The notes under the pieces are model-generated. The model did not search any database. It was not told where the DNA came from and worked only from the letters and a program-made list of their open reading frames with translations. Positions 39,613-64,000 of a DNA stretch of 64,000 bases are shown piece after piece (position 1 is the first letter of the stretch; each line of letters begins with the position of its first letter). The DNA is taken from positions 15,405 through 79,404 of the forward strand of contig JBDREC010000103.1 of assembly GCA_043820105.1 (NCBI GenBank), read 5' to 3'. The translations under genes and the position numbers were made by a program. The stretch is from Pseudomonadota bacterium (lineage in GTDB: Bacteria > Bdellovibrionota_F > JAHFAK01 > JBDREC01).

Positions 39613-39667
39613 ATTAAAATCAACCTTACATTAGAATGGTTATACAAAATAATTCCAGAGGAAGTTT

Positions 39668-40192: not shown

Positions 40193-40222
40193 ATAATCCT
40201 TAAATAAATTAGTTAATAATAT

Positions 40223-41212
40223 TTAAATAGAATCCGAGATGATACTTTTTACAATTTCAAAAATGTCAATTCCACTTTCTGCGGCGGCTGCTACAAATCC
40301 AGCATCTGGAGAAAGACATGGATTAATATTGATTTCAAGTACAAATGGATTATTGTTTTTATCAATTCTAAAATCAACCCTTGCATAACCCATAACATCA
40401 AAAACATTCCAACACTTTACAGATATATTTCTAAGTTTTTTTAATAAGGTATAATCTTTTTTCTCAAATTTAAAATTCCGCTTTGTATTGATATATTCAA
40501 AGGACTGTTCATCCCATTTTGCTTTATAAGCAATAATTTTAGGTTTATTTTCAGGAAAATTAATAAATTGAATTTCAGCACACGGCAAAACTGTTGGTGT
40601 TTTCTTTTGATTTCCAAGCAAAGCGATGTTAAATTCTCTGCCATCAATATATGATTCAATAAAATATTCATTTAGAATTATTTTATTTTTGTTCTTGTAC
40701 TTTATTAAGTCATTTTTTGTATAAAAAACAGACTTATCATTTAAGCCTTTTGATGCATGATCATAAATAGATTTTAATATATATGGGGGTTCAAATGAAA
40801 TATTATCATTTGATAAATCACTTAACAAAACCGAATTAGGAGTAGAAACATTATTTAGGCGTAATAATTTTTTTAATAATAATTTGTTTGTTGTTAAATT
40901 AAAGGTAAAAGCTTTTGAGCCTGTATATTTTATTCCCATTGAATCAAGCAATGCAGGAATGATAGCAGCAAGATTATCTTTATTTGCAATTGACTCAACC
41001 AAATTAAAAACAAATGATATTTTATTTTCTTTTAATTTTATTAATAGCTTTTCTAGGTTAAGGTTTACAGGAATTTCAATTGGATGATAAGCAAGCTTGC
41101 TTAAAGCATTTTTAATATATTTAACTTGAGTATATGTATCAAGATCATCTAAGGATGATTGAGAAGATAATTTGCCATATAATATTCCAATATTTTTCAT
41201 GTCTTGTTTCAT
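40223..41212 (-). CDS. ATP-grasp ligase, D-Ala-D-Ala ligase-like
   Basis: ATP-grasp C-terminal motifs (YIDGREFNIALLG; YARVDFRIDKNNNPFVLEININPCLS); 4-nt overlap with upstream ATP-grasp gene. Confidence 0.65.
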   Translation of the reverse strand: MKQDMKNIGILYGKLSSQSSLDDLDTYTQVKYIKNALSKLAYHPIEIPVNLNLEKLLIKLKENKISFVFNLVESIANKDNLAAIIPALLDSMGIKYTGSKAFTFNLTTNKLLLKKLLRLNNVSTPNSVLLSDLSNDNISFEPPYILKSIYDHASKGLNDKSVFYTKNDLIKYKNKNKIILNEYFIESYIDGREFNIALLGNQKKTPTVLPCAEIQFINFPENKPKIIAYKAKWDEQSFEYINTKRNFKFEKKDYTLLKKLRNISVKCWNVFDVMGYARVDFRIDKNNNPFVLEININPCLSPDAGFVAAAAESGIDIFEIVKSIISDSI

Positions 41213-42183
41213 TTAATTCTTTTTTTTGCAAAATAAATTATTTTACTGATTAATTCTTCATAAGAAATATTTACTTTTTTACAAAGTATTATAAGATCTC
41301 CGACAACAGGATGTATGCCAGCCAAGGGATTTACTTCTAAAAAATTTGGTCTGCCATATTTATCACTTTTAATGTCTATTCTTCCAGCATCCCTACAACC
41401 TAAAACTTTCCAGGCATTTAAAGCAAGATTCATTGCCAGCCTTGCTTCTTCATCATTAACAAGATTATATTCGACTCTATCTAAATAGTTTTCTTTATTT
41501 GAATAAGTATAAAGCTCTTTTTCCGCGTTTTGATTTAGCAATATTTCTAATGTACCAATTGCTTCTGCCTCATCGCCTGTTCCTATGATTCCAACTGTAA
41601 ATTCTCTGCCTGGTAAAAAATCTTCAGCTAAAACAGGTTGCGAGAAATTTTTTAGTAAATTTTCTGCCATTGATTTTAGCTGATCAATATTTTCAACTTT
41701 TGAAAGATGAGATATCCCTTTTCCAGTGCCTTCTGCAAGAGGTTTAACAATAATAGGGAAGTTTAAATTAAAATTATCTATATCCTTAATATCTTCAATA
41801 ATAAAAAAATCAGGTGTTAATAATTTTGCATCTCTTACAATTCTTTTAGTCATTGCCTTATGAAGGGTTAATGATAAAACCAAAGGATCAGAAAATGTAT
41901 AGGGGATATTATAAGCATCAAGGATTGCAGGAACTTGAGCTTCCCTTCCAAAACCCTTAACACCTTCTGCAATATTAAAGACCAGATCCCATTTTTCTTC
42001 CTTGCATAGTCTTGAAACAAGGTTTTTTATGTGTCCAATTCTTGTAGTTTGATGCCCTAAACTTTTTAGTGTAGTGTCTATTGCATCAATAGTTGCTAGT
42101 TGATCAAATTCCGCAACTTCTTCTTTTCCATAACCCATTTCTAGATAATCATCTTTTAGATCATATGTAATTCCAATATGCAT
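41209..42183 (-). CDS. ATP-grasp ligase, D-Ala-D-Ala ligase-like
   Basis: GREFTVGIIGTGDEAEAIGTLEIL and GRIDIKSDKYGRPNFLEVNPLAG match Ddl-family ATP-grasp patterns. Confidence 0.65.
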   Translation of the reverse strand: MHIGITYDLKDDYLEMGYGKEEVAEFDQLATIDAIDTTLKSLGHQTTRIGHIKNLVSRLCKEEKWDLVFNIAEGVKGFGREAQVPAILDAYNIPYTFSDPLVLSLTLHKAMTKRIVRDAKLLTPDFFIIEDIKDIDNFNLNFPIIVKPLAEGTGKGISHLSKVENIDQLKSMAENLLKNFSQPVLAEDFLPGREFTVGIIGTGDEAEAIGTLEILLNQNAEKELYTYSNKENYLDRVEYNLVNDEEARLAMNLALNAWKVLGCRDAGRIDIKSDKYGRPNFLEVNPLAGIHPVVGDLIILCKKVNISYEELISKIIYFAKKRIK

Positions 42184-42219
42184 TGGAAACTCCTTTTTAA
42201 AATATTTATTTTAATAAAA

Positions 42220-43527
42220 TTATTTTGATTTAGCTTTTTTGTTTAAGGGATATTTATAAAGTAATCCTTTATAATTTTTAAGGATGATATCATTTTCATT
42301 GATACTATCAACATAATTGGGAAGAAGTGGTATTTTACCACCACCATCAGGCGCATCAATAACAAATGTTGGAATAGCATACCCACTTGTATGCCCTCGT
42401 AAGCCATTTATAATTTCAAGACCTTTTTCTATGGGGGTTCTGAAATGAGCTGAACCCACAATTGGATCACATTGATATAGATAATAGGGTCTAACACGAA
42501 TTTTTAGTAAATTATGAAAAAGTGTTTTCATTGTTTTAATATTATCATTAATCCCTGCAAGCAAAACTGTTTGACTTCCAAGAGGGATACCATAATCAGC
42601 TAATCTGTTGCATGCTTGACTAACTTCAGGTGTTATTTCATTCGGGTGAGTGAAATGAATACTTAAATATAAAGGTTGATATTTTTTAAGTATCCTTAAT
42701 AAATTTATTGTAATACGCTGAGGTAATACTACAGGTGCCTTGGTTCCTATGCGAATTATCTCAACATGAGGAATTTGTCTGAGTCTACTGAGTAAATATT
42801 CAATTTTATTATCTACAACAATGAGCGGATCTCCTCCTGACAACAATACATCTCTGATATTTTTATTTTGTTCTATATAGTTTAAAGCTTTTTCCCAATA
42901 ATTAACTTTAAAACGATATTTATCATTTGGTCTCATGATTCGAGATCGAGTACAATATCTGCAATTTGAGGTGCAAAATTTTGTTACTAAAAGTAAAACC
43001 CTATCAGGATATCTATGAACAATTCCAGGAACTGGACTGTCTTTATCTTCGCCAAGGGGATCAAAGTTTTCTTCTGGAGAATGTATGAGTTCTTTAGTTA
43101 TAGGAATTACAGTTTTTTTGATGTAACTATTTTTTGCCAGGCTTGCATAATAGGGGGTCATTGTAACTAAAAACTTATTTTCAAACAATGATATAGCTTT
43201 TTTTTCATCTTCACTTAATTTTATTATTTTTTCTATTTTTGAAAGACCGTGCACTCTGTTTTTCAATTGCCATTGCCATGAATTCCAATCATTATTACTG
43301 GCTTCAGGATAATATTTATTTCTAAATTCATCTGATGTTGAACTTATTGTAAAAAATTCATTTGCTTTTGAATCCCTCTTGTCTAAATAATTTATAGATA
43401 GGATACCATTCTGTAATGAATTTGTTTCTAAAGAATTGGAATTTATTAGATTACTAGCAAGTAAATTATTCTCAATAGAAAGTGGCGGAGGCTCTCCATC
43501 TTCTAAACCGATTATTTTATTTATCAT
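42220..43527 (-). CDS. Lysine 2,3-aminomutase-family radical SAM enzyme (KamA/AblA/EpmB-like) with approx 80-aa N-terminal extension
   Basis: WQWQLKNRV ... TPYYASL N-terminal signature; CxxxCxxC as CTSNCRYCTRS; extension rich in Asn/Ser/Leu. Confidence 0.75.
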   Translation of the reverse strand: MINKIIGLEDGEPPPLSIENNLLASNLINSNSLETNSLQNGILSINYLDKRDSKANEFFTISSTSDEFRNKYYPEASNNDWNSWQWQLKNRVHGLSKIEKIIKLSEDEKKAISLFENKFLVTMTPYYASLAKNSYIKKTVIPITKELIHSPEENFDPLGEDKDSPVPGIVHRYPDRVLLLVTKFCTSNCRYCTRSRIMRPNDKYRFKVNYWEKALNYIEQNKNIRDVLLSGGDPLIVVDNKIEYLLSRLRQIPHVEIIRIGTKAPVVLPQRITINLLRILKKYQPLYLSIHFTHPNEITPEVSQACNRLADYGIPLGSQTVLLAGINDNIKTMKTLFHNLLKIRVRPYYLYQCDPIVGSAHFRTPIEKGLEIINGLRGHTSGYAIPTFVIDAPDGGGKIPLLPNYVDSINENDIILKNYKGLLYKYPLNKKAKSK

Positions 43528-43751: not shown

Positions 43752-44557
43752 TTAGATTCTGCCTAAAAAGTGGGCAAAATAAATTGTAAAAAACTTCAGG
43801 ATTTTAAATGTCTTTATTTAAAAAACAATTTCATTATAAGTTAGATTATATTTTCCGCAATAATATTTATAGCAAAAAAGGCTGGAATATTACCTGTTTC
43901 AGCCCTCAATATCCACAAGCTAAACCAAGACGCTTTATATTAAAAGAAATCGCAGTAAAATAAAGCTGCAATCGAAAATTTAATTTCCCACGATATCTAC
44001 ATCTGCAAAAACCGTATCCTCTTTTCAATGCTGATATCGTTCCCTCAATCGCATTTCTATTTTTCATCTCTTCTTTATACTCATCTGTCTTCATCAACTT
44101 TCTTGCTTCATCATGATCGACTACTCTCTGTCGCCAGACTGATAACAATTGATAACTAAAACCTGCATATTCCAGGTCAAGCTCTAATGCAATTTTCCAG
44201 TCTAATCTAAATATCAGATTTTGAATCGTTTGCCTGTCAGGAAGCTTTTCCAGAAACTGTAATATTGTTACACACATTAATAACCTCGGTGACACTGGTG
44301 GTCTTCCACCTTCTTTATACATCTGTTCGAAATCAGTATCTAATATTTTGGGAAATATAAATTCATGACATACCTTCACATGATCTCTGATTTCTGGAAA
44401 CACATTTAACATGATACCCGCCTTGAATAATGATTGTTGATTGTACTTTGATAAGTCCTTTGGCATCTATATTATATAAGCATTATCTGCACTTTGTAAA
44501 GATCTTGAGCTTAATTATTTGCTTAATATTTTAGCCCACTTTTTAGGCAGAATCTAA
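43752..44557. mobile_element. Internally deleted IS5/IS1182-like element (approx 806 bp) with perfect 24-bp terminal inverted repeats
   Basis: TTAGATTCTGCCTAAAAAGTGGGC at 43752-43775 is the exact reverse complement of 44534-44557; encloses a transposase ORF lacking the catalytic core. Confidence 0.75.
43906..44466 (-). pseudogene. Truncated transposase: IS5/IS1182-like N-terminal domain fused to C-terminal tail, DDE core missing
   Basis: N-terminal GRPPVSPRLLMCVTILQFL ... (DUF772-like) joined to C-terminal AIEGTISALKRGYGFCRCRYRG ... NIKRL; only 186 aa. Confidence 0.6.
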
Positions 44558-45589: not shown

Positions 45590-46582
45590 ATGCCTAGACC
45601 TAAAAGAATTGAATATGAAGGTGCTTGGTATCACGTCATGAATAGAGGTGCTAGCAAGAAAAACATTTTTCATTCACATGATGACAGGAACTTTTTTTTA
45701 AAAATGCTAGCGCATGTCAGTGATCAATGGAATTTTCAGACACATGCCTATTGTTTAATGACAAATCATTATCATTTGCTTGTGCATACACCAAATCTTG
45801 GCTTGTCAGAAAGTATGCGACATCTTTCTTCAATTTATACAATGAGATATAATAAGAAATATAAAAGGGATGGAGCATTGTTTAGAGGTAGATTCAAATC
45901 AATATTGTTAGATAGGGATGATTGTGCATCAGCAATATTAAGATACATTCACCAAAATCCCGTAAAGGCAGGTTTATGTAAAAATGTAGAATCATACAAG
46001 TGGTCTAGTCACAGAGCATATTTAAATGAAAAAAATAAACCGTCATTTCTATATACAGATGAGATATTGAAAGATTTTGCAAAGATTAGTTCTAAGGCAA
46101 GGCGAAAATTGCATGAGTTTGTGACTGGAAGAGAATCTAAAGATTTTATTAACTCTATAGAAGGGCCAAGACCTGTATCTGTAATGGGATCAGAGGGTTT
46201 TAGAGATTGGATAAAAGATAATTATTTATATAAAGTAAACAAAGATAAGTTAATTTCAACAGCAAGAAGTAATAAGCGCCCTGAAATTATACCAAAGCAA
46301 ATGTTATCATATGTTAGCTCTGAATTCAGTGTCAGTAAAAAAAGCATTATGGAAAATAAGTCTGGATCCATTGCAAATATACCAAGACTGACATATTTAT
46401 ATTTATTGCATAAAATTGCAGGTTTTACACATAATGAAATCGCTGAGATAAGCAAATCAGGAAACAAAGCTTCAGTAGCTCAAAACATTTATCGTTTTTC
46501 AAGGAGATTGGAAGAGGATGAATGTTTGGGCGAAAGGATTAAAGGTATGAAGGGGAATTTGTTGTCGAATGTCAAGGCCTGA
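45590..46582 (+). CDS. REP-associated tyrosine transposase (IS200-like HuH Y1 transposase) with C-terminal HTH-like extension
   Basis: YHVMNRG N-terminus, HuH motif HYHLLVH, catalytic Tyr context RYIHQNPVKAGL; flanked by inverted REP-like repeats. Confidence 0.7.
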   Translation: MPRPKRIEYEGAWYHVMNRGASKKNIFHSHDDRNFFLKMLAHVSDQWNFQTHAYCLMTNHYHLLVHTPNLGLSESMRHLSSIYTMRYNKKYKRDGALFRGRFKSILLDRDDCASAILRYIHQNPVKAGLCKNVESYKWSSHRAYLNEKNKPSFLYTDEILKDFAKISSKARRKLHEFVTGRESKDFINSIEGPRPVSVMGSEGFRDWIKDNYLYKVNKDKLISTARSNKRPEIIPKQMLSYVSSEFSVSKKSIMENKSGSIANIPRLTYLYLLHKIAGFTHNEIAEISKSGNKASVAQNIYRFSRRLEEDECLGERIKGMKGNLLSNVKA

Positions 46583-49260: not shown

Positions 49261-49338
49261 TTTGAATTGTTTTATATTATTATTTATTCCAATTAATTAT
49301 AACAATTTAAACTTAAGTTTATGCATATGGAGCTAATA

Positions 49339-50748
49339 ATGACCAAAAAAGAACTGGATTTAATTTTACATGAAGGGGAAAACTATAAAATCGAGTTCAA
49401 AGAAAATGTTAACTCTGATTTGTCAAAAGAAATGGTTGCTATGGCAAATTCATCTGGAGGTAGGATATTTATTGGGATTAATGATAAAAACGAAGTAATA
49501 GGTGTGAAAGCAACAAATGCTTTGTTATCTAAAATTCAGAATATGGCCCAGGATTGTGATCCCTCAATTATTATCAACATTAATACTTATAAAAATATTT
49601 TAATTATTAATGTTAAAGAAGGTTTAAATAAACCATATCGCTGTAGTAAAGGTTTTTATACTAGGAATGGTTCAAATTCACAGAAAATGACAACCAGAGA
49701 GATAACTGAATTTGTGCAAGCAGAAGGTAATGTTAGGTTTGATGAAAAGCTTCGGGAAGATATAAATATAAGTAAAAAAATTAAAAAAGAACTGCTTAAT
49801 CATTATTTGCAATTAGCAAACATTAATAAGACAATGGATGATGAATTTATACTAGAAAATTTAGGAGTACTGGAGCAAAAGAATAAGAAATCATATCTTA
49901 ATAATGCTGGGCTATTGTTTTTTTGCGATTCTACTAACCCACATCTTCATTATGCAAATATTACTTGTGCTTTATACAAGGGCAGTGAAAAGCTAAATGT
50001 TTTGGACAGAAAAGATTTTTCATCTGATATAATTTCTAATATCGAAGATACCATGTTGTTTTTGAAAAAGCATTTAAATCTTAGATATGAAATAACATCA
50101 TTAAGAAGAAAGGAAATTCTTGAGCTGCCTGAAGTTGCTTTGCGTGAAGCAGTAGTCAACGCTGCTTGCCACAGAGACTATTTTGAAAAAGGTGCCAATA
50201 TTATGGTTGAGATATTTGATGATAGGGTCCAAATAACTAACCCTGGTGGATTGCCTAAAGGCTTGTTACCAGAAAAATTTGGAACCAGAAGCGTATCAAG
50301 AAATCCTTTAATCACTTCATTGTTCCATCGTGTTGGCTACATTGAAAAAATGGGAACAGGTATAGGTAGAATAAGAAAGTCCCTCAAGGAATCAGGTAAT
50401 TCAGAAGCTGTATTTGAATATGACAGTTTTTTTTCAGTGATATTTAAAAGATCTATCTTAGAAAATGGAGCTAGTTCAGACATACAAGTTACCGGACAAG
50501 TCACCGGACAAGTTCCCGAACATGTCACCAAACTACTTAGTATATGCAAAGGAGAGTTGTCTCGTAGTGAATTGCAGGATATATTAAAATTAAAGCACAG
50601 AGAGAACTTTGTGAATTTATATCTAAACCCAGCATTGGAATCTGCTTTTATCGAAATGACAATTCCAGGCAAACCAAGATCAAGCAAACAAAAATACCGC
50701 TTAACAAAAAAAGGGAAAGATTATTTAAAGAAACTGCCTGAAAATTAA
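49339..50748 (+). CDS. Schlafen/AlbA_2-like domain protein with HATPase_c_4-like domain and C-terminal wHTH (COG2865-type regulator)
   Basis: N-terminal KELDLILHEGENYKIEFKE ... ANSSGGRIFIGIND; central REAVVNAACHRDYF ... NPGGLP ... SRNPLI ... MGTGIGRI; VTGQVTGQV linker repeat; start at ATG 49339 with GGAG RBS. Confidence 0.6.
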   Translation: MTKKELDLILHEGENYKIEFKENVNSDLSKEMVAMANSSGGRIFIGINDKNEVIGVKATNALLSKIQNMAQDCDPSIIININTYKNILIINVKEGLNKPYRCSKGFYTRNGSNSQKMTTREITEFVQAEGNVRFDEKLREDINISKKIKKELLNHYLQLANINKTMDDEFILENLGVLEQKNKKSYLNNAGLLFFCDSTNPHLHYANITCALYKGSEKLNVLDRKDFSSDIISNIEDTMLFLKKHLNLRYEITSLRRKEILELPEVALREAVVNAACHRDYFEKGANIMVEIFDDRVQITNPGGLPKGLLPEKFGTRSVSRNPLITSLFHRVGYIEKMGTGIGRIRKSLKESGNSEAVFEYDSFFSVIFKRSILENGASSDIQVTGQVTGQVPEHVTKLLSICKGELSRSELQDILKLKHRENFVNLYLNPALESAFIEMTIPGKPRSSKQKYRLTKKGKDYLKKLPEN

Positions 50749-52980: not shown

Positions 52981-54804
52981 TTAATTAATTCTTTTTAAAT
53001 ATACATGTACTTGTTCATAAATTTCCTTATAAGTTCCATCTTTCTTCAACCAGTTATTTGTATCAGTAGATATCCAATCTTCTTTTTTATATTCTTTTTT
53101 TCCTTCCTTTTTTACATCTAATCTATTTTGTAATGAATTGATAATTTTTAAAATATAGTTATCAAAATCTTCTCCAATCTCCAAGCAATACTGTGAATTT
53201 TTTGAAATATATTTTTGACCGTGTAATGTTTTAAGTTTATCTTTTAAATTATCAATAGTTGAAATACTATTAATATCATTTTTGAAAAAATAGATTGCAC
53301 TCAAAGCAAGTATTACATCATTTATATAATTATTTTGAAGAATTTCATACTTCATAATATTATTGTTTTTTATCTGATTAATCTTTTCTGATATTCTATA
53401 AGATAGCATTAATTTATGAAATTGGTCTTCTTCATTTATTGTCATGCTAAAAATATTATCATAACAATGATCTGAAAAAACAAGTTTATATCTTCCTTTT
53501 GTAGATATTGGTATTTGGAGAAAAAAAGACATAAAAGATATTCCAATATCTATGTTCTTAATCTTTAAATGCAAAGGACTTTTACCAAAAGGATTACGGT
53601 ACTTGCTTTTTTCAACAGTTGCCCATTCACCGTCCTTTTTGTCATAAAAGATTCCAACATCATCAAGGAATTTAAAAATTTTAACTTGTATTCTATCACC
53701 TGAATGTAGATCTCTTGTGCTAATAGCATTTTGACTATTACTGGCAACAGCAATATCCTTTGAAATTTTTGAAATTTTTGATTTTTTATTTATTTTTGTA
53801 AGTCGCATTAGAATCTGTACATTGTCAGGCAATTCGTTTACAATTCTTGTTAATGTCTTTGTAGTCTGTCCACCATTAACAATTTGAAAATTAGTAATCT
53901 GTAGTTTATTTTCATTTAATATCTTAAAGTCTTCACATATTGAATTGATACCATTGTTTAATATCCAAAAATTGGAACGACTACCTTTTGAGTATTCGTG
54001 TTTAATTTTTGAATTGATTTCATTTTCTCCTTTATAATAACGGACATTTAAAGCTAAAATCATCTCTTTATGTTTTTCTATTATAGGCCTCAAGGAGTTC
54101 GCTTTTATACTCGTAACAATAGTTTCAATTTCGGTTTTATCGTTATCATCATAAAAGTTTGAACATTTTTTAAAATATTCTTTTTCTACAATATCTATGA
54201 TTATTTCATTTTTAGGCATTTCAGTATCATCATAAAGCATTTCAAGACGGTTATAGTCAAAAAAATCAGGATAAAAATTAATTCCTTTATCTTCATAATT
54301 AGTGAATAATGCCATTATGTCAGTTTTGATATTGGTAGAATCAAAGGTGTTGTCTATATAATAAAAGTAAATATTATAATTATTATTTTCAATATTTTGA
54401 GGTGTTAATAAAGTATTAATTTCGTTATCAATTATTTTTTGTAACTTTTTGTTCGGTTTTTGCTCATCATAATTTATTTTTAAAAGCCGATCTATAAATT
54501 TTTTATTTTTTCTAATCTCATCTGTATTTAATAGATTATTATTTGAATATTTGAATTGAAATACATATATATCATGGTTATTTTGATTAGTAAAAATAGC
54601 ATCATTCCCTAAATCATTTGACATATCAACAATGTGCTCTTTAATGAACTCATTAATGTCTATGCCATCGTAGTCAAATTCAATTATTTTCCTGCTAAAA
54701 CACTCTTTAATAATAAAATGACCAAATGCTGTACCATCATTAGGATAATTAAAGGTTTCTCTTAAATCTGAAACCTGATCTTTTATTCTTTCATAAAAAC
54801 TCAT
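52981..54804 (-). CDS. AIPR-like abortive-infection family protein (putative)
   Basis: N-terminal restriction-endonuclease-like region (YDGIDI ... GNDAIF ... IYVFQFKYS) and central FQIVNGGQTTKTL motif as recalled for AIPR; start set at ATG 54804 with AGGAGA RBS. Confidence 0.45.
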   Translation of the reverse strand: MSFYERIKDQVSDLRETFNYPNDGTAFGHFIIKECFSRKIIEFDYDGIDINEFIKEHIVDMSNDLGNDAIFTNQNNHDIYVFQFKYSNNNLLNTDEIRKNKKFIDRLLKINYDEQKPNKKLQKIIDNEINTLLTPQNIENNNYNIYFYYIDNTFDSTNIKTDIMALFTNYEDKGINFYPDFFDYNRLEMLYDDTEMPKNEIIIDIVEKEYFKKCSNFYDDNDKTEIETIVTSIKANSLRPIIEKHKEMILALNVRYYKGENEINSKIKHEYSKGSRSNFWILNNGINSICEDFKILNENKLQITNFQIVNGGQTTKTLTRIVNELPDNVQILMRLTKINKKSKISKISKDIAVASNSQNAISTRDLHSGDRIQVKIFKFLDDVGIFYDKKDGEWATVEKSKYRNPFGKSPLHLKIKNIDIGISFMSFFLQIPISTKGRYKLVFSDHCYDNIFSMTINEEDQFHKLMLSYRISEKINQIKNNNIMKYEILQNNYINDVILALSAIYFFKNDINSISTIDNLKDKLKTLHGQKYISKNSQYCLEIGEDFDNYILKIINSLQNRLDVKKEGKKEYKKEDWISTDTNNWLKKDGTYKEIYEQVHVYLKRIN

Positions 54805-54903
54805 AATAAATCTCCTATTTAAAAATTCAATTGTATCTATCATGTCATGAATTAATAGTCAAAATTCACTCAAGCTAATTAAAAAATTTGGTTCTCGTCC
54901 GTC

Positions 54904-55506
54904 TTACGATAACAACTTCGCGATAGATGGAACTATAAGATCGTGACTTAAACCTTGAGTATGCCGGGCGGAATGATCCAGATCAGGCATCTGGTTTTTT
55001 ATACATTTTGATTCCGTGTGATAATAAATATTATTCAATGCACCTTCGTGTATAAAACGCTTTTTAAGATTTGCTATATTTTTTTTATTTGAACCTCCCC
55101 AGACATACCATCTCCATGGAAAGACTCTATTTTCAGAATCACATTTGGGAGGTTTATCATAATTCGACAGTTCGATAATTGCTTCATCTAGTGAGGGATT
55201 ACATAAGTAAAACAAATTCTGAACCTGAATATATGAATTTCTGGAATATGTTTTGTTAGAATATTCATAGGCTTTTTCAACGATTGAACGAACATTCGGT
55301 AATAGTTTGTCATTTGACAGTTTAATTTTTTGAATTCCCGATATTGACAGATCAGTGGGTTTTGCAGAACCCGGGTTCTTTCCTGCAATTGCTCCAATGC
55401 ATGTATCGTTTGCTTCAGGTTTTGCAATAGATTCAAGATATATTCTTGTATCAAACCTGAAAATATTGGAGCCATCCTTTTTAAATATTGCCCAATAGAA
55501 AGCCAT
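54904..55506 (-). CDS. DUF1643-like protein
   Basis: CIGAIAGKNPGSAKPTD, IQVQNLFYL and WYVWGG resemble the DUF1643 pattern recalled from memory; GAGGTG RBS. Confidence 0.4.
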   Translation of the reverse strand: MAFYWAIFKKDGSNIFRFDTRIYLESIAKPEANDTCIGAIAGKNPGSAKPTDLSISGIQKIKLSNDKLLPNVRSIVEKAYEYSNKTYSRNSYIQVQNLFYLCNPSLDEAIIELSNYDKPPKCDSENRVFPWRWYVWGGSNKKNIANLKKRFIHEGALNNIYYHTESKCIKNQMPDLDHSARHTQGLSHDLIVPSIAKLLS

Positions 55507-56306: not shown

Positions 56307-58727
56307 ATGATTAACAAAGGAAAACTGGTGAATATGATGGATACTAAATATGGTTTTTCACATTTGCATTTGCATACCCAATATAGTCTGCTGGATTCAA
56401 CAATAAAAATAAGTGATCTTATAGAAACAGTTAAAAAACTAGACATGGACTCTGTAGCAATTACAGACCATGGAAATCTTATGGGAGCGATTGAATTCTA
56501 CAAGGAAGCAAAAAAACAGGATATAAAAGCAATTATAGGCTCTGAGGTTTATATTGCACAAACTGGGCGTTTTGATAAAAGTACAAAACTGCATCATCAT
56601 CTTGTTCTGCTCGCGGAAAACAATACTGGGTACATTAATCTCATAAAACTTGTCAGCATAGGATATACAGAAGGATATTATAATGTCCCAAGAATAGACA
56701 ACGAAGTTTTAAGGCAACATTCTGAAGGACTAATAGGACTATCTGGTTGTATGGGTGGAGAAATTCCGCATTACATTTTAAGAGATGAACTTTCCACAGC
56801 AATTAAAGCTGCAATGGAATATAAAACAATTTTTGGAGCTGAAGCATTTTATCTTGAACTTCTGGAAACAGGATTGTCAGGTCAGAAAAAAGTAAATGAC
56901 GGACTTATTCATATATCAAAAGAATGTAACATTCCCCTTGTTGCTACTAACAATTGTCATTATTTAAAAAAAGAAGAGCATCAGGTTCATGCAGTTTTAT
57001 CGTGTATTCAAGCAGGGAAAACATTAGATGAAATCGAAATTGAAACTGATCAGCTATATCTGAAATCAGCACATGAAATGCTGGACCTTTTCAAGGATCA
57101 TCCTGAAGCAATCCAAAACACAAAGAAAATTGCAGACAGATGCAACGTAGAAATTGAACTTGGCAGGAAACAGCTGCCTCATTTTCAGACACCGGAAAAA
57201 ATTTCTCATGCAGCTTTTCTTGAAAAACTTGCCTTTGAAGGATTGGATATGAGATTTGACACAATTATAAGCGATAGGAACATATCAAAATACACTAAGA
57301 GATTGAAACATGAACTTGAAGTTATAAATAACAAAGGATTTGCTGCATATTTCCTTGTGGTCTGGGATTATGTAAAATATGCCATGGAAGCAGGGATTCC
57401 AGTGGGACCTGGAAGAGGTTCCTCTCCAGGTTGTCTTGTTGCTTATTTGCTAGGAATAACAGACATTGATCCGGTAAGATACAGCCTGCATTTTGAAAGG
57501 TTTCTGAATCCTGACAGGGATATATTGCCTGATTTTGATATAGACTTCGGCTACGATCAAAGGGATGAAGTTATAGAATACATTACAAAAAAGTGTGGGA
57601 AAAACAAGGTATCCAAAATAATAACATATGTAACTTTCAGAGCAAGAAGTGTCATCAGGGATGTAGGAAGAGCTCTTAATATTCCATATGACGAGGTTGA
57701 TAAGGTAGTAAAGCTTTTATCTGAATTTTTTGATATGAGTCTTGAAAGAGCATTAGAGCTTAAACCAGAACTTAATAAAATACATGAAAAAAACAAAATA
57801 TACCAGGATCTAATTAGGTTTTCATTCACATTAGAGGGACTTAAGCGTCACACAGGTGTTCATACATGTGGCATTGTAATATCTCCAAAAGCACTTACCC
57901 AATATATTCCATTATATTGCAACACATCTGGTGATCAGATAAGTCAGTTTACAAAAGATGAACTGGAAGATATAGGACTTGTAAAATTTGATATTCTTGG
58001 TCTTAAAGCATTAACCGTTTTGGATAATGCCTGTAAACTGATAAATAAAAATGGTGATGAAATATTTGATATAAAACAAATACTACATGATGATCCAAAA
58101 GTATTTGAACTGCTTACATCAGGAAACACATCAGGTGTTTTCCAGTTTGAAAGTTGTGGAATTAAGGATATCATAAAAAAGATAAAACCAGACTGTTTTG
58201 AAGATATAATTGCAGCTTACGCATTATACAGACCAGGTCCATTAGCCAGCGGCATGACAGAAGATTTTTGGAAAAGAAAACATGGACTCATTGCAAGCAA
58301 TTATCCACATCCAAAGCTTGAAGATATTTTAAAAGTAACATATGGAATTATTGTCTACCAGGAACAGATAATGGAAGCAGCTTCAAGAATTGCAGGATTG
58401 CCTTTTCAACAGGCGGATATTTTACGCAGAATAATGGGCAAGAAGAAAGCCAATCAAATAGAAAAGCAAAAGGAAATCTTCGTAGAAGGTGCCAGGAAAA
58501 ATGATATATCATATGAAAAAGCAAATGAGATATTTGATCTTTTAGAATATTATTCAGGATACGGTTTCAACAAGGCACATGCTGCAGCTTATGCATTGAT
58601 CTCATACAGATGCGCATATCTTAAATGTCATTATCCTATGGAATATTCTGCAGCCTTAATATCTTCAGAAAAAGATAACCCTGAAAAGGCATTGAGATAT
58701 CTTAAGGAATGGAAAAGCATGAATTAA
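56307..58727 (+). CDS. dnaE: DNA polymerase III alpha subunit (DnaE), C-terminally truncated: PHP domain and polymerase core only (806 aa)
   Basis: PHP motif FSHLHLHTQYSLLD; polymerase-core GYGFNKAHAAAYALISYRCAYLKCHYP; ends about 45 residues after this motif, where a full-length DnaE would continue for several hundred residues. Confidence 0.7.
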   Translation: MINKGKLVNMMDTKYGFSHLHLHTQYSLLDSTIKISDLIETVKKLDMDSVAITDHGNLMGAIEFYKEAKKQDIKAIIGSEVYIAQTGRFDKSTKLHHHLVLLAENNTGYINLIKLVSIGYTEGYYNVPRIDNEVLRQHSEGLIGLSGCMGGEIPHYILRDELSTAIKAAMEYKTIFGAEAFYLELLETGLSGQKKVNDGLIHISKECNIPLVATNNCHYLKKEEHQVHAVLSCIQAGKTLDEIEIETDQLYLKSAHEMLDLFKDHPEAIQNTKKIADRCNVEIELGRKQLPHFQTPEKISHAAFLEKLAFEGLDMRFDTIISDRNISKYTKRLKHELEVINNKGFAAYFLVVWDYVKYAMEAGIPVGPGRGSSPGCLVAYLLGITDIDPVRYSLHFERFLNPDRDILPDFDIDFGYDQRDEVIEYITKKCGKNKVSKIITYVTFRARSVIRDVGRALNIPYDEVDKVVKLLSEFFDMSLERALELKPELNKIHEKNKIYQDLIRFSFTLEGLKRHTGVHTCGIVISPKALTQYIPLYCNTSGDQISQFTKDELEDIGLVKFDILGLKALTVLDNACKLINKNGDEIFDIKQILHDDPKVFELLTSGNTSGVFQFESCGIKDIIKKIKPDCFEDIIAAYALYRPGPLASGMTEDFWKRKHGLIASNYPHPKLEDILKVTYGIIVYQEQIMEAASRIAGLPFQQADILRRIMGKKKANQIEKQKEIFVEGARKNDISYEKANEIFDLLEYYSGYGFNKAHAAAYALISYRCAYLKCHYPMEYSAALISSEKDNPEKALRYLKEWKSMN

Positions 58728-58778: not shown

Positions 58779-60287
58779 TCAAGGAAGGGCACAGATGTTC
58801 TCCAGCTCCTCCAAAAGTTTCACCATCGCCAATGTATCCTGACCACAATAAACTTTAAGAGCCTTGTAGATCTTTTCCTTTATTTCTAATTCAGTTGAAT
58901 CTGAGATCATCTCTAAATATTTAAGTGAGGCTATTCCTCCTTCTCCGATTTCAAGATCGTGGTAATTCATGTTGGGAATAAAAGCAGGGAGCACTTTTTT
59001 AATGGATGCTGAACCCTCCTGATTTGGATGATATAAGAAGCGTTGTTTAAATGGGATCAATAGGTCTTTCATTTTTTGGTTAATTTCTAAAAGCTCCTTT
59101 TTATATTCAGGAAAAGCAGCGGCAAGCGATTTGTTGATAGTAGCTTCAAAAGGTTTATTGTAAACTATGACGGTTCCAGCACATTTGCCATTTTTACAAC
59201 AGGATGAAACAAGCATTTTGACCAAACCTGCTCTTGGATCAGAAAATTCATTGTGCAAATATTCAAGGTGTTCAAGTGTGCCACCCTTTTTTTTCTGGAT
59301 ATGCAGAGAAAACTGAAAGGGAACCTGTCCATAGGGTTTTGTTCCATCAAAAAGCGGAATAGCAGGAAAAATAGTTTCATAATCAAGAAAATATAGGGGA
59401 TATTTTAGCAGTTTTAAAAAATCGTCTATTTTTGCTTTATCCTTATAAATTTCACCATTTTGATAACTTTCAATATCAATTCTTTGTTTGCTGCTAAGAT
59501 CAAGGTCTAAAGGGATATCTCCGACCTTAATAATATTTTGATCTAAAAGTTTTTTAAGCTTATTTTTATTTCTTTTAAATATATTATAGACTGAATATTT
59601 TGGGATGCTACTCCAGCAGTAGTCAATAAAATCACAGTCAAAAGGATTGTTACAATGAGAACCCACAGGAATTTCAAACTCTTCAGACTGGGATAATATT
59701 TTCAAAAACTTCTGCACATTTCTTTTTACTTTAGCTTGTCCTTTAATTGCAGCTTCTGTTACATCTTCAAGAACAAAAAATTCAGAAAGATCAATTTCTC
59801 CATTCTTAATAAATTTATTATTTATATGCATTAATATTGATTTATTGATTTTATAGCCCGCGTTTTCAAAAACATACCGTTGAAAAGCAACATCATCAAG
59901 GTGATATTTTGCAACATGAGTGGATTGCTTAACTTCAATCATGTCCCAGCCCTGACCATCAGCTGCCTTTCTAAGAATATCAATCCTGCAAAACAAGCCC
60001 TCTGTGGTTGAAGCAGTTGCCTCAAAAATAATAGCCGAGCCGCCTGCTATATTTTTTTTCGTGGAATCAATAGCACCAGGAATATTTTTGTAATCTTCAG
60101 TAATCTCAATTCCAGCTTTAAAATATTTCTGTGCGAGTTTCCCAACTTCATGTCCCTGATCAAAAGTATGCTGTAAGGATAAAGGTATTTCTTCAGGTAA
60201 AAGATCTTTTCTGTGTTTATGAAGCCAAAGTCTGAGAGGACATTGGCAGCCTAAAAGATAGTTCGATTTTGAAAGTAAAAGTTGCAT
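58779..60287 (-). CDS. Predicted nuclease: Cas4-like PD-(D/E)xK domain with Fe-S Cys ligands fused to DUF2779-like (DnaQ-like) exonuclease domain
   Basis: N-terminal GCQCPLRLWL, RIDIL ... DMIEVKQS, C-terminal CNNPFDCDFIDYC Cys cluster; second half YFLDYETI ... VPFQFSLH. Confidence 0.5.
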   Translation of the reverse strand: MQLLLSKSNYLLGCQCPLRLWLHKHRKDLLPEEIPLSLQHTFDQGHEVGKLAQKYFKAGIEITEDYKNIPGAIDSTKKNIAGGSAIIFEATASTTEGLFCRIDILRKAADGQGWDMIEVKQSTHVAKYHLDDVAFQRYVFENAGYKINKSILMHINNKFIKNGEIDLSEFFVLEDVTEAAIKGQAKVKRNVQKFLKILSQSEEFEIPVGSHCNNPFDCDFIDYCWSSIPKYSVYNIFKRNKNKLKKLLDQNIIKVGDIPLDLDLSSKQRIDIESYQNGEIYKDKAKIDDFLKLLKYPLYFLDYETIFPAIPLFDGTKPYGQVPFQFSLHIQKKKGGTLEHLEYLHNEFSDPRAGLVKMLVSSCCKNGKCAGTVIVYNKPFEATINKSLAAAFPEYKKELLEINQKMKDLLIPFKQRFLYHPNQEGSASIKKVLPAFIPNMNYHDLEIGEGGIASLKYLEMISDSTELEIKEKIYKALKVYCGQDTLAMVKLLEELENICALP

Positions 60288-60727
60288 ATTTTAATCCTTA
60301 TTGATTTAACTCATTTTATTATAATGTATCAGCATGTCAATTAATGACTTCTTTTGTTGTATTTATATTTTTAAAGGATGTTGTTCATAATATGACTTCC
60401 TTTACCAAAAATATCTAAATTTTATTGCTTATTCAGGCTGTATAAATATCCTGATTTTAGTAAAATTGAAACAAATATCTTTATTAATGGATATCCAAAT
60501 AAAATAATCCATGGAACAGAATCGAAAATCCAAAGTAATACCTATTGGAGAAACCATAATAATAGCCAGTTTTCCAGTTTCAGATAGTAAATTTCTCATT
60601 TTAGTGATAAAAGTCTTTTGATCAACTTTTTCACATGACTTTTTTCATGGCAATAACTAAGATATATCACTTATTTAAAAAGCATTCTTTCAAGAGGAGT
60701 TATGGAAGCTAAAAGGAATCAACTACA

Positions 60728-62083
60728 ATGAACAAAAAAGAACTAGACTTCATTATTAAACAAGGTGAAGGTCAGCATATAGAGTTTAAAGAATCTTTTG
60801 ATAAATCTCTTGTTAAAGAAATAATTGCTTTTGCAAATGCTCAAGGGGGCAGGATTTATTTAGGGATAAATGACAAAGGACTAATAAAAGAAATTAATAT
60901 TACAAATTCCTTGAAATCTCAAATTCAGGATATTGCTAAAAATTGTGATCCTTCAATTCTTGTCAATTTAAGTGCATATAAGAATATATTAATTGTTAAT
61001 GTTCATGAAGGAAATGACAAACCTTATTCTTGTTCAAGTGGATTCTATTTAAGGATGGGAGCAAATACACAAAAGTTAACGCGAGATGAAATCATGCAAT
61101 TTGCCATTTCCGAAGGAAAAAAACTGTTTGATGAGCAAATTTGTGATGATTTTGTTTTTTTAGATGATTTTGATGAAGATAAACTGAAAAGTTACTTAAA
61201 AGAAGCAAAAATTGAAAGCGAGCTTGATAATAAATCAATCCTTTTAAACCTTGGTGTTGCAAAACTTATAAATAAGCAATTCAAATTTACGAATGCTGGG
61301 ATACTATTTTTTGCAAAAAAACCTTCAAAATATTTTATGACAACAAAGGTAGTTTGTGCTGAATATGCAACAAACGAAAAAGTTAAAATATTAGATCGTA
61401 AGATTTATGATGAGGGTATTTTAAAAAACCTAAAAAATGCAATTAACTTTATAAGTAAAAGAATTAAAATAGAATTTGAAATTAAATCTGCTAAAAGAAA
61501 GGAAATCCCACAATTTCCAGAGGAAGCTTTTAGAGAAGCAGTTGTTAATGCCATAATGCATAGAGATTATTTTGATAAAACCTCTGAAATTATGATTGAA
61601 TGTTACAGGAATAAAATTGTTGTTTATAATCCCGGAGGACTTGTCAAATGGTTAAGACCCGAAGAATTTGGAAAAATTAGTAAACTTAGAAACCCTTTAA
61701 TTGCTTCACTTTTATCAAGAACAATATATGCTGAAAAAATGGGAACTGGCATAAAAAGAATGAATAAGGCTATGATCAAAGCCGGATTGAAAGAGCCTGC
61801 TTATGAATATTATGACACTTCTTTTTATACACAATTTGATGATAAAAATATCGAAAAAAGAAAAGGGAAAAGTTCGGTGAAAAGTTCGGTAAAAAGTACG
61901 GTGAAAAGTTCGGTGAAAATTCTTAATCTTATTAAAAAAGATGCATATATTACAATTCCAGAAATCGCTAAAACCCTAAATTTAACAACAAGAGCAATTG
62001 AAAAGCAAATAGCAAACTTAAAAAAAACAGGCAAAATAAAAAGAATTGGCCCTGACAAAGGCGGATATTGGGAGGAATTATGA
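60728..62083 (+). CDS. Schlafen/AlbA_2-like domain protein with HATPase_c_4-like domain and wHTH (paralogue 2)
   Basis: KELDFIIKQGEGQHIEFKE ... ANAQGGRIYLGIND; REAVVNAIMHRDYF ... NPGGL ... RNPLIA ... MGTGIKRM; KSSVKSSVKSTVKSSVK linker from a 15-bp tandem repeat. Confidence 0.6.
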   Translation: MNKKELDFIIKQGEGQHIEFKESFDKSLVKEIIAFANAQGGRIYLGINDKGLIKEINITNSLKSQIQDIAKNCDPSILVNLSAYKNILIVNVHEGNDKPYSCSSGFYLRMGANTQKLTRDEIMQFAISEGKKLFDEQICDDFVFLDDFDEDKLKSYLKEAKIESELDNKSILLNLGVAKLINKQFKFTNAGILFFAKKPSKYFMTTKVVCAEYATNEKVKILDRKIYDEGILKNLKNAINFISKRIKIEFEIKSAKRKEIPQFPEEAFREAVVNAIMHRDYFDKTSEIMIECYRNKIVVYNPGGLVKWLRPEEFGKISKLRNPLIASLLSRTIYAEKMGTGIKRMNKAMIKAGLKEPAYEYYDTSFYTQFDDKNIEKRKGKSSVKSSVKSTVKSSVKILNLIKKDAYITIPEIAKTLNLTTRAIEKQIANLKKTGKIKRIGPDKGGYWEEL

Positions 62084-63138
62084 AGGCCACCAAAGAATCC
62101 AATCCTACCTATCAGAATGCAATTACCATAGTTGAGATATTTCTTTATTTAAAGCAGTTTCCAAGAGGTGTTTTATCATCTCAAATACAAGAGGAATATT
62201 ATCAGGATAAGGATGACAGGACCTTTCATAGAGTTAAAAAAGCCCTGGAAGATTTTCTTTTTGATCCTCAAGGTGATAAGGTATTCTTTTTTGAAGGCGA
62301 GGGTAAAAATCAGACTATACGCTTGCATCCAAAGCATTTTAATACCTCTGATGTAATGGAATGGCATCTCTTTGGTTTAATGATGTCCAATGTAATGATG
62401 ACCAACATCAAGGGTGATGTGGATTCCTCGCCTGATATTAAAAGCGGGGTGCTGCAATTGCGTGATCTTATTGTTAGTAATCTTGAAGCTGATTTTTATA
62501 AGAGTAATGCAGATGGTGAAATAAGCGAAGTTAGAGAAAATCTATTAAATAAAATTAAGAAGAAATATTACTGCAAGAAAGTTGGGCAGAAGATTTATGG
62601 CAAAGATGACAAATCAACTGAGATCCTTGATAAAATTACACAGGCTTTATATAAAGAAAACAAGCTAAAGATTCATAAGTATAAAAATGAAAAAAAGAAA
62701 GACTGGGTATTTTCACCTTATACACTTTTATCATATAATGATGCCTTTTATGTAATGGGAAAGCTTGCAAAGGGCTATATGCTTACCCTTGCTATTGACC
62801 GGATTGATGAGCTTGAAGTTTTGAAGAAAACCTTTAATTATCCCAAAGACTATCATCCCTCAGAGATTCTCAATAAAGGCTTTGGAGTAGGGGACGTGAA
62901 TCAGGAGGCTGTTAAAGTTGAGCTCTTGTTTGACCAGGCTGTTTCCTATCTAATCACAGAACGTTTTTGGCATCATTCACAAATGATTACAGAAAAAGAA
63001 GATGGTTCTGTTTTACTGGAAATGGAAGTGCCTGACAGCTTTGAGTTAAGAAAGTTTGTTTTGAGTTTTGGGTCAAATGTGAAAGCATTAGCGCCAGATT
63101 CGCTTGGACAATTTATTAAAGAAGATAAGAGCAAATAG
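62080..63138 (+). CDS. WYL-domain transcriptional regulator (wHTH-WYL-WCX; BrxR/CapW/PafBC-like)
   Basis: N-terminal wHTH, central WVFSPYTLLSYNDAFYVMGK WYL-like segment, C-terminal WCX-like region; start ATG 62080 overlaps upstream stop as ATGA. Confidence 0.5.
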   Translation: MKATKESNPTYQNAITIVEIFLYLKQFPRGVLSSQIQEEYYQDKDDRTFHRVKKALEDFLFDPQGDKVFFFEGEGKNQTIRLHPKHFNTSDVMEWHLFGLMMSNVMMTNIKGDVDSSPDIKSGVLQLRDLIVSNLEADFYKSNADGEISEVRENLLNKIKKKYYCKKVGQKIYGKDDKSTEILDKITQALYKENKLKIHKYKNEKKKDWVFSPYTLLSYNDAFYVMGKLAKGYMLTLAIDRIDELEVLKKTFNYPKDYHPSEILNKGFGVGDVNQEAVKVELLFDQAVSYLITERFWHHSQMITEKEDGSVLLEMEVPDSFELRKFVLSFGSNVKALAPDSLGQFIKEDKSK

Positions 63139-63232: not shown

Positions 63233-63577
63233 TTAAAAACCTACTTCAGTATTTGAGCGGCCTTGAGAACATGTAGTTCCAACATTTGCACTGCCTTCAT
63301 AGCAGCCACCATTTACAACGGTATTATTGTTATTAGTTCCAGCATTGCAAACACCATAATAAAAACTTCCAGATGTATTTGATGGTCCAGTGTAACATCC
63401 GCGGTTAACGCCTACATTGGCTCCAGTTCCGGTTGAACAATAAGAATCTCCGCTTATTCCACTTCCGGATCCGCAAAGGGTGTTGGATGCTATGCTTCCA
63501 CTTGCACCTGAACCTGTATAGCAATAGTTTAAGCCAGGCAATGAAATGTTTATAAGCTTAGGCGTTAGGTATTTCAT
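63233..63577 (-). CDS. Small Cys/Gly/Ser/Asn-rich protein with conserved MKY... N-terminus (paralogue 2)
   Basis: ATG at 63575-63577 with GGAGA RBS 8 nt upstream; Cys at regular approx 13-residue intervals; paralogue of 44713-45000. Confidence 0.55.
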   Translation of the reverse strand: MKYLTPKLINISLPGLNYCYTGSGASGSIASNTLCGSGSGISGDSYCSTGTGANVGVNRGCYTGPSNTSGSFYYGVCNAGTNNNNTVVNGGCYEGSANVGTTCSQGRSNTEVGF

Positions 63578-63758
63578 TATTTTTTTCTCCAGAATATTAG
63601 AATAAAAACCCAATAATAATGCTCATGTATTTGAGTTCTTTTATTTATTATTTTATACCTATTTGCAAACAAAAAACTATATAAAATTAAAAATATGCAC
63701 TTTTCCATTCTGTGGTATTTTCCTGATAGTTTTGAATATAGTTAAATATTATGTTTAC

Positions 63759-63986
63759 TTACATCTTTCCATTACAATACCACCTGGTTTTGCCATCAAC
63801 TTTTTCAGAATAAATTGGAACACCTGCTTTTTCAATAGCTTCAATGTCCCTGCGTAAAGTTCTTAAAGATACCTTGAAATCTAAAATAATTTTTTGATGA
63901 ATATCTTCAAGGCTTACTCCAAACCTTGCTTTTTCTATAATTTTACAGATTCTTAAAATCCTTGCTACCTGATCTCCTCTGGCCAT
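63759..63986 (-). CDS. Small HTH DNA-binding protein (DeoR/HTH_11-like, resembling the N-terminal domain of WYL regulators)
   Basis: ATG at 63986 with GGAGG RBS 5 nt upstream; ARFGVSLEDIHQKIILDFKVSLRTLRRDIEAIEKAGVPI HTH pattern; 75 aa only. Confidence 0.5.
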   Translation of the reverse strand: MARGDQVARILRICKIIEKARFGVSLEDIHQKIILDFKVSLRTLRRDIEAIEKAGVPIYSEKVDGKTRWYCNGKM

Positions 63987-64000
63987 AGATGCCTCCCGAC

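Follow-up and report, generated by a model that had tools for sequence, protein, structure and literature searches.

What might be the function of a protein that joins a Cas4-like nuclease to a second, exonuclease-like half and is encoded in a stretch of DNA in which neither clustered regularly interspaced short palindromic repeats (CRISPR) nor cas genes can be recognized? The question is raised by a gene located in a 64,000-nucleotide stretch of the genome of a Pseudomonadota bacterium (GenBank assembly GCA_043820105.1, contig JBDREC010000103.1, positions 15,405 to 79,404), hereafter referred to as the window. An initial annotation of this DNA presented the fusion of two nucleases as an unusual find. 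We show that this layout is, instead, the usual one in DUF2779, a known family of very large size, that the residues of both active sites and four cysteines are conserved among the relatives, and that, in the clade to which the protein belongs, the gene is often linked to genes encoding WYL regulators. The reading towards which we lean, with some reserve, is that of a stand-alone, single-chain DNA-end nuclease of the DUF2779 family that is controlled by a WYL regulator.

Membership in the DUF2779 family

Judging from the number and length of its relatives, the open reading frame (ORF) is a real gene rather than a chance ORF. Its product is 100% identical to a protein from a metagenome-assembled genome (MAG), deposited at NCBI as 'DUF2779 domain-containing protein [Pseudomonadota bacterium]' on a source contig of 123 kb. 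A word-indexed search yielded 3778 homologues with E ≤ 1e-3 among the scored candidates, the top non-identical one being matched with E = 1e-174 at 98% coverage, and the close homologues share 48%–54% identity with the query over 96%–99% of the latter. When 1.84 billion representatives of 50%-identity clusters were scanned exhaustively with HMMER, the family grew to 8751 cluster representatives with E ≤ 1e-3, among which 2700 were matched with E ≤ 1e-30; nearly all these proteins are ~490–500 amino acids (aa) long and collinear with the query across residues ~4–498 (the representatives being 34%–46% identical to it).

Searches with hidden Markov models had been proposed as a check. The Pfam profile of DUF2779 (PF11074) matches residues 299–428 over its whole length (positions 1–126 of 126) with E = 6.5e-41 and 140 bits, compared with the gathering cut-off of 23.3, and the collinearity with the relatives runs the full length of the protein, through the N-terminal PD-(D/E)xK domain and the C-terminal DUF2779 domain. 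The match to Cas_Cas4 (PF01930) is sub-threshold (E = 0.0049, 17.4 bits versus 22.7, residues 100–225), and the Cas4 models of PADLOC match weakly (E = 4e-4 and 8e-4). The NCBIfam model of the UU173 family, 650 positions long, is matched only in its C-terminal part.

The fusion is a known family architecture, described in two publications. A survey of the RNase H-like superfamily that appeared in 2014 assigned PF11074 to the clade of 3′–5′ exonucleases and reported that both DUF2779 and COG2251/PF13482 co-occur with the PD-(D/E)xK-like domain DUF83 (PMC3985635). More recently, a study of the minimal cell JCVI-syn3.0 recognized the quasi-essential protein MMSYN1_0389, through HHpred analysis of this Mycoplasma member, as a Cas4-like nuclease fused to a DEDD nuclease with a Tyr ahead of the last Asp, and pointed out that the DUF2779 family is widespread and uncharacterized and that MMSYN1_0389 retains two of the four cysteines (PMC13621843, 2026). 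A transposon mutant of M. bovis in a DUF2779 gene has been found to be growth-deficient in cell culture.

Thus, the protein studied here belongs, as an unexceptional member, to a family that is very large and already described but uncharacterized; its two-domain layout is the family norm, and its novelty is low. With the previously described members (PF11074; RNase H-like family F.17; MMSYN1_0389, the UU173-like proteins of Ureaplasma and Mbov_0804), it shares the architecture, the acidic residues and collinearity at 98% coverage. It differs from MMSYN1_0389 in that the query and its close relatives possess the four cysteines of the predicted iron–sulphur (Fe–S) site and MMSYN1_0389 only two, and from the Mycoplasma form in being shorter (~500 aa) and in belonging to a clade that is often linked to WYL genes. 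Accordingly, the window adds no new architecture, but it does supply a clean and complete example, with all four cysteines and the two active sites intact, of what is among the more widespread uncharacterized nucleases, represented by thousands of 50%-identity clusters in bacteria and some archaea and including a quasi-essential gene of the minimal cell.

Two nuclease domains with conserved active sites

Conservation was assessed on an alignment of 120 cluster representatives that are 34%–45% identical to the query and on separate alignments of the N- and C-terminal domains built from ~70 genomic loci. In the N-terminal half, the residues kept in at least 90% of the representatives are C16, E89, D103, E118, V119, K120, Q136, C212, C218 and C224, and the domain alignment repeats the same pattern. 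In a structural model computed with AlphaFold2 from an alignment of 84 sequences, E89 lies on strand 86–93, D103 on strand 98–107, E118 and K120 on strand 114–120 and Q136 on helix 127–142, so that the PD-(D/E)xK core carries the motifs of RecB-type nucleases, namely, hhD (D103), ExK (E118-x-K120) and the Q-helix (Q136). The 'DxEVK' motif of the initial annotation corresponds to the residues D115-M-I-E118-V-K120, and the motif-II aspartate is D103, located within RIDIL.

Six cysteines are present in this half (positions 14, 16, 100, 212, 218 and 224). The four conserved ones, C16, C212, C218 and C224, are arranged with one at the N-terminal end and three at the C-terminal end of the domain and appear to be positioned as in the Fe–S group of RecB, Cas4, Dna2 and Exo5 nucleases, but the last three are spaced C-x5-C-x5-C; together, the four are predicted to bind an Fe–S cluster. 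By the fold of the model and by its motifs, the N-terminal domain is Cas4-like, and the suggestion of a Cas4/RecB-like half is borne out by the four cysteines, the intact D…ExK site and the fold matches described below.

The C-terminal half displays an RNase H-like fold with the Exo I, II and III motifs of the DEDD superfamily. Here, D302, E304, F380, E381, D408, Y480, C481 and D484 are kept in at least 90% of the 120 representatives, and D302, E304, E381, Y480 and D484 are invariant across 71 loci in the alignment of this domain. The exonuclease-like YFLDYET motif is indeed found at residues 299–305. In the model, D302 and E304 lie on the first strand, E381 opens helix 378–391, and the long C-terminal helix bears Y480 and D484. 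Throughout the DUF2779 family, the residue at the Exo II position is Glu381, apparently in place of the third Asp, and Tyr480 points to the DEDDy type. Hence, whereas the DEDD-type acidic set expected of a DnaQ-like half is intact, the motifs and the model assign the domain to the DEDDy exonucleases (Tyr-x3-Asp), resembling the exonuclease domains of family-B polymerases and MrfB, rather than to the DEDDh exonucleases of the DnaQ type. We predict that it is a metal-dependent 3′–5′ exonuclease. Loss of the catalytic residues would have spoken against a double nuclease; both acidic sets are conserved.

The model is a confident one, with a mean predicted local distance difference test score (pLDDT) of 95.4 and a predicted template modelling score (pTM) of 0.89, and each half matches the expected class of nucleases. 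In a Foldseek search against the PDB, the top match is the type I-C Cas4 (8d3l_I, E = 2.9e-4, probability 1.0), and MGME1 and AddB come next. The matches of the N-terminal half comprise Cas4, MGME1, Dna2 and Exo5, and those of the C-terminal half the exonuclease domains of family-B polymerases, MrfB, ExoI and Pol III epsilon; complexes of Cas4–Cas1–Cas2 (8d3l, 7mi4) and Cas2–DEDDh (8fyc) are also among the matches. Within the library of viral structures (BFVD), the whole two-domain model matches 'YprB RNase H-like' proteins of giant viruses (TMq ~0.6, E down to 2e-15). The viruses concerned are CroV, Faunusvirus, Yasminevirus and Sylvanvirus, with E3T4R0 among the matches. The combination of a PD-(D/E)xK domain with a polB/YprB-like exonuclease therefore appears to be a recurrent design that is present also in nucleocytoplasmic large DNA viruses.

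Compared with Cas4, whether solo or CRISPR-associated (PF01930; 4IC1, 8D3L, 7MI4), the protein scores below the family threshold, lies in a window without cas or CRISPR context, shows the C-x5-C-x5-C spacing and is fused to a second nuclease. MrfB/YprB is a DEDDh enzyme that works with the helicase MrfA, whereas the query is of the DEDDy type and has no helicase partner. Pfam detected no match to PF13482 (RNase_H_2) at E ≤ 1, and the query family is therefore best regarded as a sister of MrfB/YprB and COG2251/TM0106, not as a member, the likeness being structural only. AddAB and Dna2, unlike the query, function with a helicase or translocase, present as a domain or as a partner, and Exo5 and MGME1 are single-domain proteins; none of AddB, Dna2, Exo5 and MGME1 bears a DEDD exonuclease, which the query does.

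Clade-specific linkage to WYL regulators

To the extent that the architecture is familiar, the genomic context is where this protein offers something new. We compared 80 genomic loci from GTDB species representatives along with several metagenomic ones, 83 loci in total after removal of duplicates, and defined the families of neighbours by all-against-all clustering of the ORFs within 7 kb of the DUF2779 gene. The sampled genes come from Desulfobacterales, many Alphaproteobacteria, Verrucomicrobiota, Bacteroidota, Chloroflexota, groups of the candidate phyla radiation (CPR) and a few archaea. The sole sizeable recurrent neighbours are a WYL–WCX regulator, found in 22 of the 83 loci, the window included, and a tandem AAA+ ATPase of 670–750 aa, found in 14 loci, mostly directly upstream and on the same strand as the DUF2779 gene. 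The tandem AAA proteins bear merely a generic likeness to Cdc48/p97 and to the anti-phage ATPase IteA. Smaller recurrent groups include GmrSD, HKD-Snf2, PDDEXK_4, methylases and recombinases.

The WYL linkage is not random. The density of WYL genes around DUF2779 genes drops from 4.5 per 100 kb at a distance of 0–2 kb to ~0.5 per 100 kb at 6–10 kb, and, in a neighbour-joining tree, WYL-linked loci account for 21 of the 45 loci in the clade of the query (several of the others being short contigs) versus 2 of 38 elsewhere. The WYL protein of the window, whose gene lies 1.8 kb from the DUF2779 gene, is closest to the products of WYL genes that adjoin DUF2779 homologues in MAGs of Desulfobacterales (phmmer, loci L008 and L011, E ~1e-22); thus, a WYL gene both neighbours the nuclease gene in the window and recurs among its relatives. 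No prior description of a link between WYL and DUF2779 was found for DUF2779/PF11074 or in the reviews on WYL proteins, within a library of literature that is not exhaustive. What is new here, then, is a clade-specific linkage to WYL genes, which lie within a few kb in about half of the loci, often together with a Cdc48-like AAA+ ATPase.

A census of the genes flanking the DUF2779 gene in 76–77 loci, two on either side, recorded 137 Pfam families upstream and 156 downstream in 146 proteins each, led upstream by WYL (11), AAA (8) and GmrSD_N (4) and downstream by ResIII (5) and GmrSD_N (4); no fixed or obligate operon partner is present in these censuses of ~76 loci.

A recurrent operon is recognizable in MAGs of Desulfobacterales and Alphaproteobacteria, with the order WYL, Cdc48/IteA-like tandem AAA+ ATPase (670–750 aa), an optional gene and the DUF2779 nuclease (Table 1). 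The optional middle gene is a small DnaB_N-like ORF, a ClpP-like protease or a PDDEXK_4 nuclease. No description of this operon was found in the literature searched.

Proposed function and rival explanations

Characterized nucleases of the RecB/Cas4/Dna2/Exo5 type thread a free end of single-stranded DNA (ssDNA) and cut mostly in the 5′–3′ direction or as ssDNA endonucleases. The N-terminal domain of the query, its fold stapled by the predicted Fe–S cluster, might likewise cut ssDNA ends 5′–3′ or endonucleolytically, and the C-terminal domain would act as a two-metal DEDDy exonuclease that removes nucleotides in the 3′–5′ direction. With a 5′–3′ or endonucleolytic domain and a 3′–5′ domain in one chain, the protein could shorten or break down the two strands of a DNA end, as well as ssDNA in both orientations, with no need for a helicase partner of its own. 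If so, it would represent a helicase-free counterpart of AddAB-type end processing or, alternatively, of the trimming that Cas4 and DEDDh enzymes perform in CRISPR adaptation.

As for regulation, WYL regulators are known to control defence islands and DNA-damage responses, including SOS-independent ones, and to sense ssDNA (PMC9122601, PMC9186387), and pairs of a WYL-type helix-turn-helix (HTH) protein with a Schlafen-ATPase-HTH protein have been reported among the regulators that occur in defence contexts (PMC5704561). In the window, the nuclease gene would be transcribed from its own strong predicted promoter and is divergently paired with an operon encoding a Schlafen-type ATPase-HTH protein and the WYL regulator. 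The latter probably controls the nuclease gene, as suggested by the adjacency of the two and by the recurrence of this adjacency in relatives, and might switch expression on nucleic-acid cues, for instance, ssDNA arising from damage or infection, whereupon the enzyme would process or destroy linear DNA within a variable defence or stress island. Stress- or infection-induced expression is also suggested by the WYL linkage in the query's clade. The arrangement parallels that of known WYL-regulated modules (the BrxR/CapW repressors and the PafBC and DriD activators) in that a WYL–WCX gene is located near, and divergently from, an effector gene and is accompanied by a Schlafen-ATPase-HTH gene; it departs from them in that no known defence system is attached to the query and the query effector is absent from PADLOC. 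By hinting at when the enzyme is made, the WYL linkage offers a practical handle on the function of DUF2779 proteins.

Several observations weigh against this reading. The N-terminal domain falls below the Pfam threshold for Cas4, and its C-x5-C-x5-C spacing departs from the canonical cysteine pattern; the Glu at Exo II departs from the canonical DEDD pattern, in which the third acidic residue is Asp. Searches of PDB sequences with phmmer and hmmsearch, using the single protein, the full-length profile of 120 sequences and the separate profiles of the N- and C-terminal domains, did not reach any Cas4 or DEDD structure; they returned chance-level matches (EGLN1, Vip1, an MCP) and a weak Exo II-like match to a Pol I. 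Since no solved relative was recovered with these profiles, the equivalence of the residues follows from motifs, positions in the secondary structure and fold matches rather than from a residue-level alignment. With regard to regulation, a WYL gene is missing from the majority of the related loci and, in the window itself, the case for WYL control is the adjacency of the two genes. DUF2779 proteins are retained in reduced genomes (Mycoplasma, CPR bacteria, Rickettsiales), a distribution that a housekeeping role explains no less well than an inducible role does. Finally, no biochemical study of any DUF2779 member was found in the literature. All things considered, we regard a WYL-controlled DNA-end nuclease as somewhat better than an even bet; this reading overlaps with the repair and defence variants considered next, and the likelihoods given for the three are not meant to add up to certainty.

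The strongest of the rivals is a constitutive housekeeping nuclease of DNA repair or recombination, comparable to MrfB, AddB, Exo5 or MGME1, which would process ends or remove damaged strands, its defence-like neighbours being incidental to a variable region. We consider this a tentative alternative. Such a role is in keeping with the very broad distribution of the family, including CPR bacteria, Rickettsiales and archaea, with the quasi-essentiality of the Mycoplasma member in JCVI-syn3.0 and the impaired growth of the M. bovis mutant in cell culture, with the heterogeneity of most neighbourhoods, with the presence of MrfB, MGME1, Dna2 and Exo5 among the top structural matches and with the rarity of DUF2779 in viral contigs (29 loci in IMG/VR). 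It accounts less readily for the fact that about half of the loci in the query's clade are WYL-linked and that many of them lie among GmrSD, restriction–modification, HKD-Snf2 and Abi genes. The repair role overlaps with the WYL-controlled nuclease, given that WYL regulators also control damage responses, and differs from it mainly with respect to inducibility and defence.

Somewhat more doubtful is a dedicated effector directed against phages or plasmids, which would be derepressed by the WYL regulator upon infection and would destroy linear invader DNA, in a subset of cases together with the Cdc48/IteA-like AAA+ ATPase. The neighbours in the window (AbiU/AIPR, two Schlafen-type ATPases and the WYL regulator) point in this direction, as do, among the relatives, the recurrent operon of WYL, tandem AAA, optional PDDEXK_4 and DUF2779 genes and the frequent proximity of GmrSD, restriction–modification and HKD-Snf2 genes; pairs of WYL and Schlafen-HTH proteins are, moreover, reported to be typical of defence loci (PMC5704561). 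Conversely, PADLOC has no model for the protein except for the weak Cas4 matches, so that no recognized defence system is matched by the query, the AAA partner is absent from the window, defence genes do not adjoin most of the family members, and essentiality in a minimal Mycoplasma points to a core role. More speculatively still, the DUF2779 nuclease of the Desulfobacterota/Alphaproteobacteria clade might be the effector of an undescribed WYL-switched module that degrades linear DNA from both polarities in response to ssDNA or another nucleic-acid cue, joined in a subset of loci by the Cdc48/IteA-like AAA+ ATPase and PDDEXK_4, and could thus constitute a new system of defence or of SOS-independent damage response.

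Two further possibilities are unlikely. A nuclease of RNA processing or nucleotide salvage, in which the DEDD domain would be an exoribonuclease like RNase T, RNase D or oligoribonuclease, appears improbable: the best fold matches are DNA exonucleases and proofreading domains of polymerases, the characterized Fe–S partners of the RecB/Cas4 type all act on DNA, and the regulator context points to DNA as well. Least probable is a trans-acting helper of CRISPR adaptation that would combine the Cas4 and DEDDh trimming roles in one protein on behalf of a CRISPR locus in another part of the genome, for although both classes of nucleases trim prespacers in different CRISPR types and the model matches the Cas4–Cas1–Cas2 and Cas2–DEDDh complexes, our scans found no array or cas gene in the window, there are no cas genes in the neighbour censuses of ~80 relatives, and DUF2779 proteins are also encoded by Mycoplasma and CPR genomes, which often lack CRISPR.

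Genomic surroundings

The features of the window that bear on the nuclease gene, along with the operons of relatives, are listed in Table 1.

Table 1. The DUF2779 gene, its domains and its surroundings (positions in the window unless stated otherwise)
Feature	Position	Strand	Basis and details
DUF2779-family two-nuclease protein	58779..60287	minus	Complete ORF, ATG start, 502 aa, stop included; AlphaFold2 pLDDT 95.4, pTM 0.89
Cas4/RecB-type PD-(D/E)xK nuclease domain	aa 1–232, 59592..60287	minus	E89, D103, E118-V-K120, Q136; predicted Fe–S ligands C16, C212, C218, C224
Helical linker between the nuclease domains	aa 233–296, 59400..59591	minus	Secondary structure of the model
DEDDy 3′–5′ exonuclease (DUF2779 domain)	aa 297–502, 58782..59399	minus	Exo I D302/E304 (LDYET); Exo II N377-x2-F380-E381; Exo III Y480-x3-D484; D408 also conserved
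Predicted sigma-70-like promoter	60313..60340	minus	TTGACA-16-TAAAAT, 11/12, consensus match only; ~25 bp upstream of the ATG
Divergent intergenic region, 440 bp	60288..60727		Three ATGACTTYYTT copies (60344, 60392, 60635); imperfect 17-nt inverted repeat 60605–60647
Schlafen/AlbA_2 + HATPase_c_4 + winged-HTH protein	60728..62083	plus	Pfam, PADLOC; 451 aa; opens the divergent operon
WYL + WCX regulator	62068..63138	plus	Pfam; PADLOC WYL E = 1.5e-23; 356 aa; overlaps the preceding gene by 16 nt
dnaE ORF (PHP, NTPase, finger domains)	56307–58727	plus	Aligns to E. coli DnaE residues 6–803 of 1160, then stops
AIPR protein	52981–54843	minus	Pfam/PADLOC; AbiU E = 1.3e-33, weak MzaE
Schlafen/AlbA_2 + HATPase_c_4 + Fic_C protein	49321–50748	plus	Pfam
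WYL–AAA–DUF2779 operons of relatives	L003 2303–7491; L008 4498–11479; L032, L033, L041, L043, L045, L072		Positions are those of the respective loci

The window contains no CRISPR-like repeat array and no match to any Rfam family, and no Cas family figures in the Pfam and PADLOC matches of the window ORFs scanned (for 1–34 kb, among the best 25 of 35 families), in agreement with the initial annotation; a CRISPR-linked Cas4 was rejected for want of an array or cas genes in the window. A phage gene was likewise rejected, with 29 matches in the 2.9 million viral contigs of IMG/VR. The first 34 kb carry housekeeping genes, namely, those for tRNA synthetases, ScpA/B, SurE, Tol-Pal-type proteins and two-component systems, and from ~34 kb onwards the region is variable, with a radical-SAM/ATP-grasp cluster, DDE and IS200 transposases, the Schlafen/AlbA_2–HATPase_c_4–Fic_C gene, the AIPR gene and the dnaE ORF. 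The description of the neighbourhood of the nuclease gene as defence-like is upheld by the AbiU/AIPR protein, the Schlafen-type ATPases and the WYL regulator.

Between the nuclease gene and the divergent operon, the three copies of ATGACTTYYTT and the inverted repeat are suggestive of candidate operator sites; three of the five matches to this pattern in the window fall into the divergent spacer, with 0.6 expected in the whole window, for a pattern that was picked post hoc.

On the other side, the stop codons of the dnaE ORF and the DUF2779 gene are 51 bp apart. The C-terminal third of DnaE (the beta-binding/OB region) was not found in any frame of the window, and the shortness of dnaE may stem from truncation of a second copy or decay to a pseudogene, from a rearrangement or from an assembly junction.

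The two Schlafen-type genes are paralogues that differ in their C-terminal ends, Fic-like in one and winged HTH in the other, and the latter gene includes a 12-nt tandem repeat (61867–61919) encoding a KSSVKS-type repeat. The AIPR gene is adjoined by a 200-aa ORF without family match (54904–55506, minus strand), with which it may form a small abortive-infection module. Further away, positions 35593–43527 encode three radical-SAM proteins (one of them lysine-2,3-aminomutase-like), two ATP-grasp proteins similar to D-Ala-D-Ala ligases, a GNAT protein and an adenosine-deaminase-like protein; this cluster, which is flanked by 43906–44466 and 45590–46582 and adjoined by genes for DDE and IS200/Y1 transposases, is possibly mobile and might serve biosynthesis or modification.

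Downstream of the WYL gene, a 126-aa ORF rich in Gly, Cys, Ser, Thr and Asn (63233–63613, minus strand) has no match in Pfam or PADLOC and possibly encodes a small secreted protein, unless it is spurious. It is followed, at ~63760–63990 on the minus strand, by a 75-aa ORF whose likeness to WYL-type regulators is confined to their N-terminal HTH portion, after which it is cut short by a stop codon; this ORF seems to be the remnant of another regulator gene and hints at decay of genes in this part of the window.

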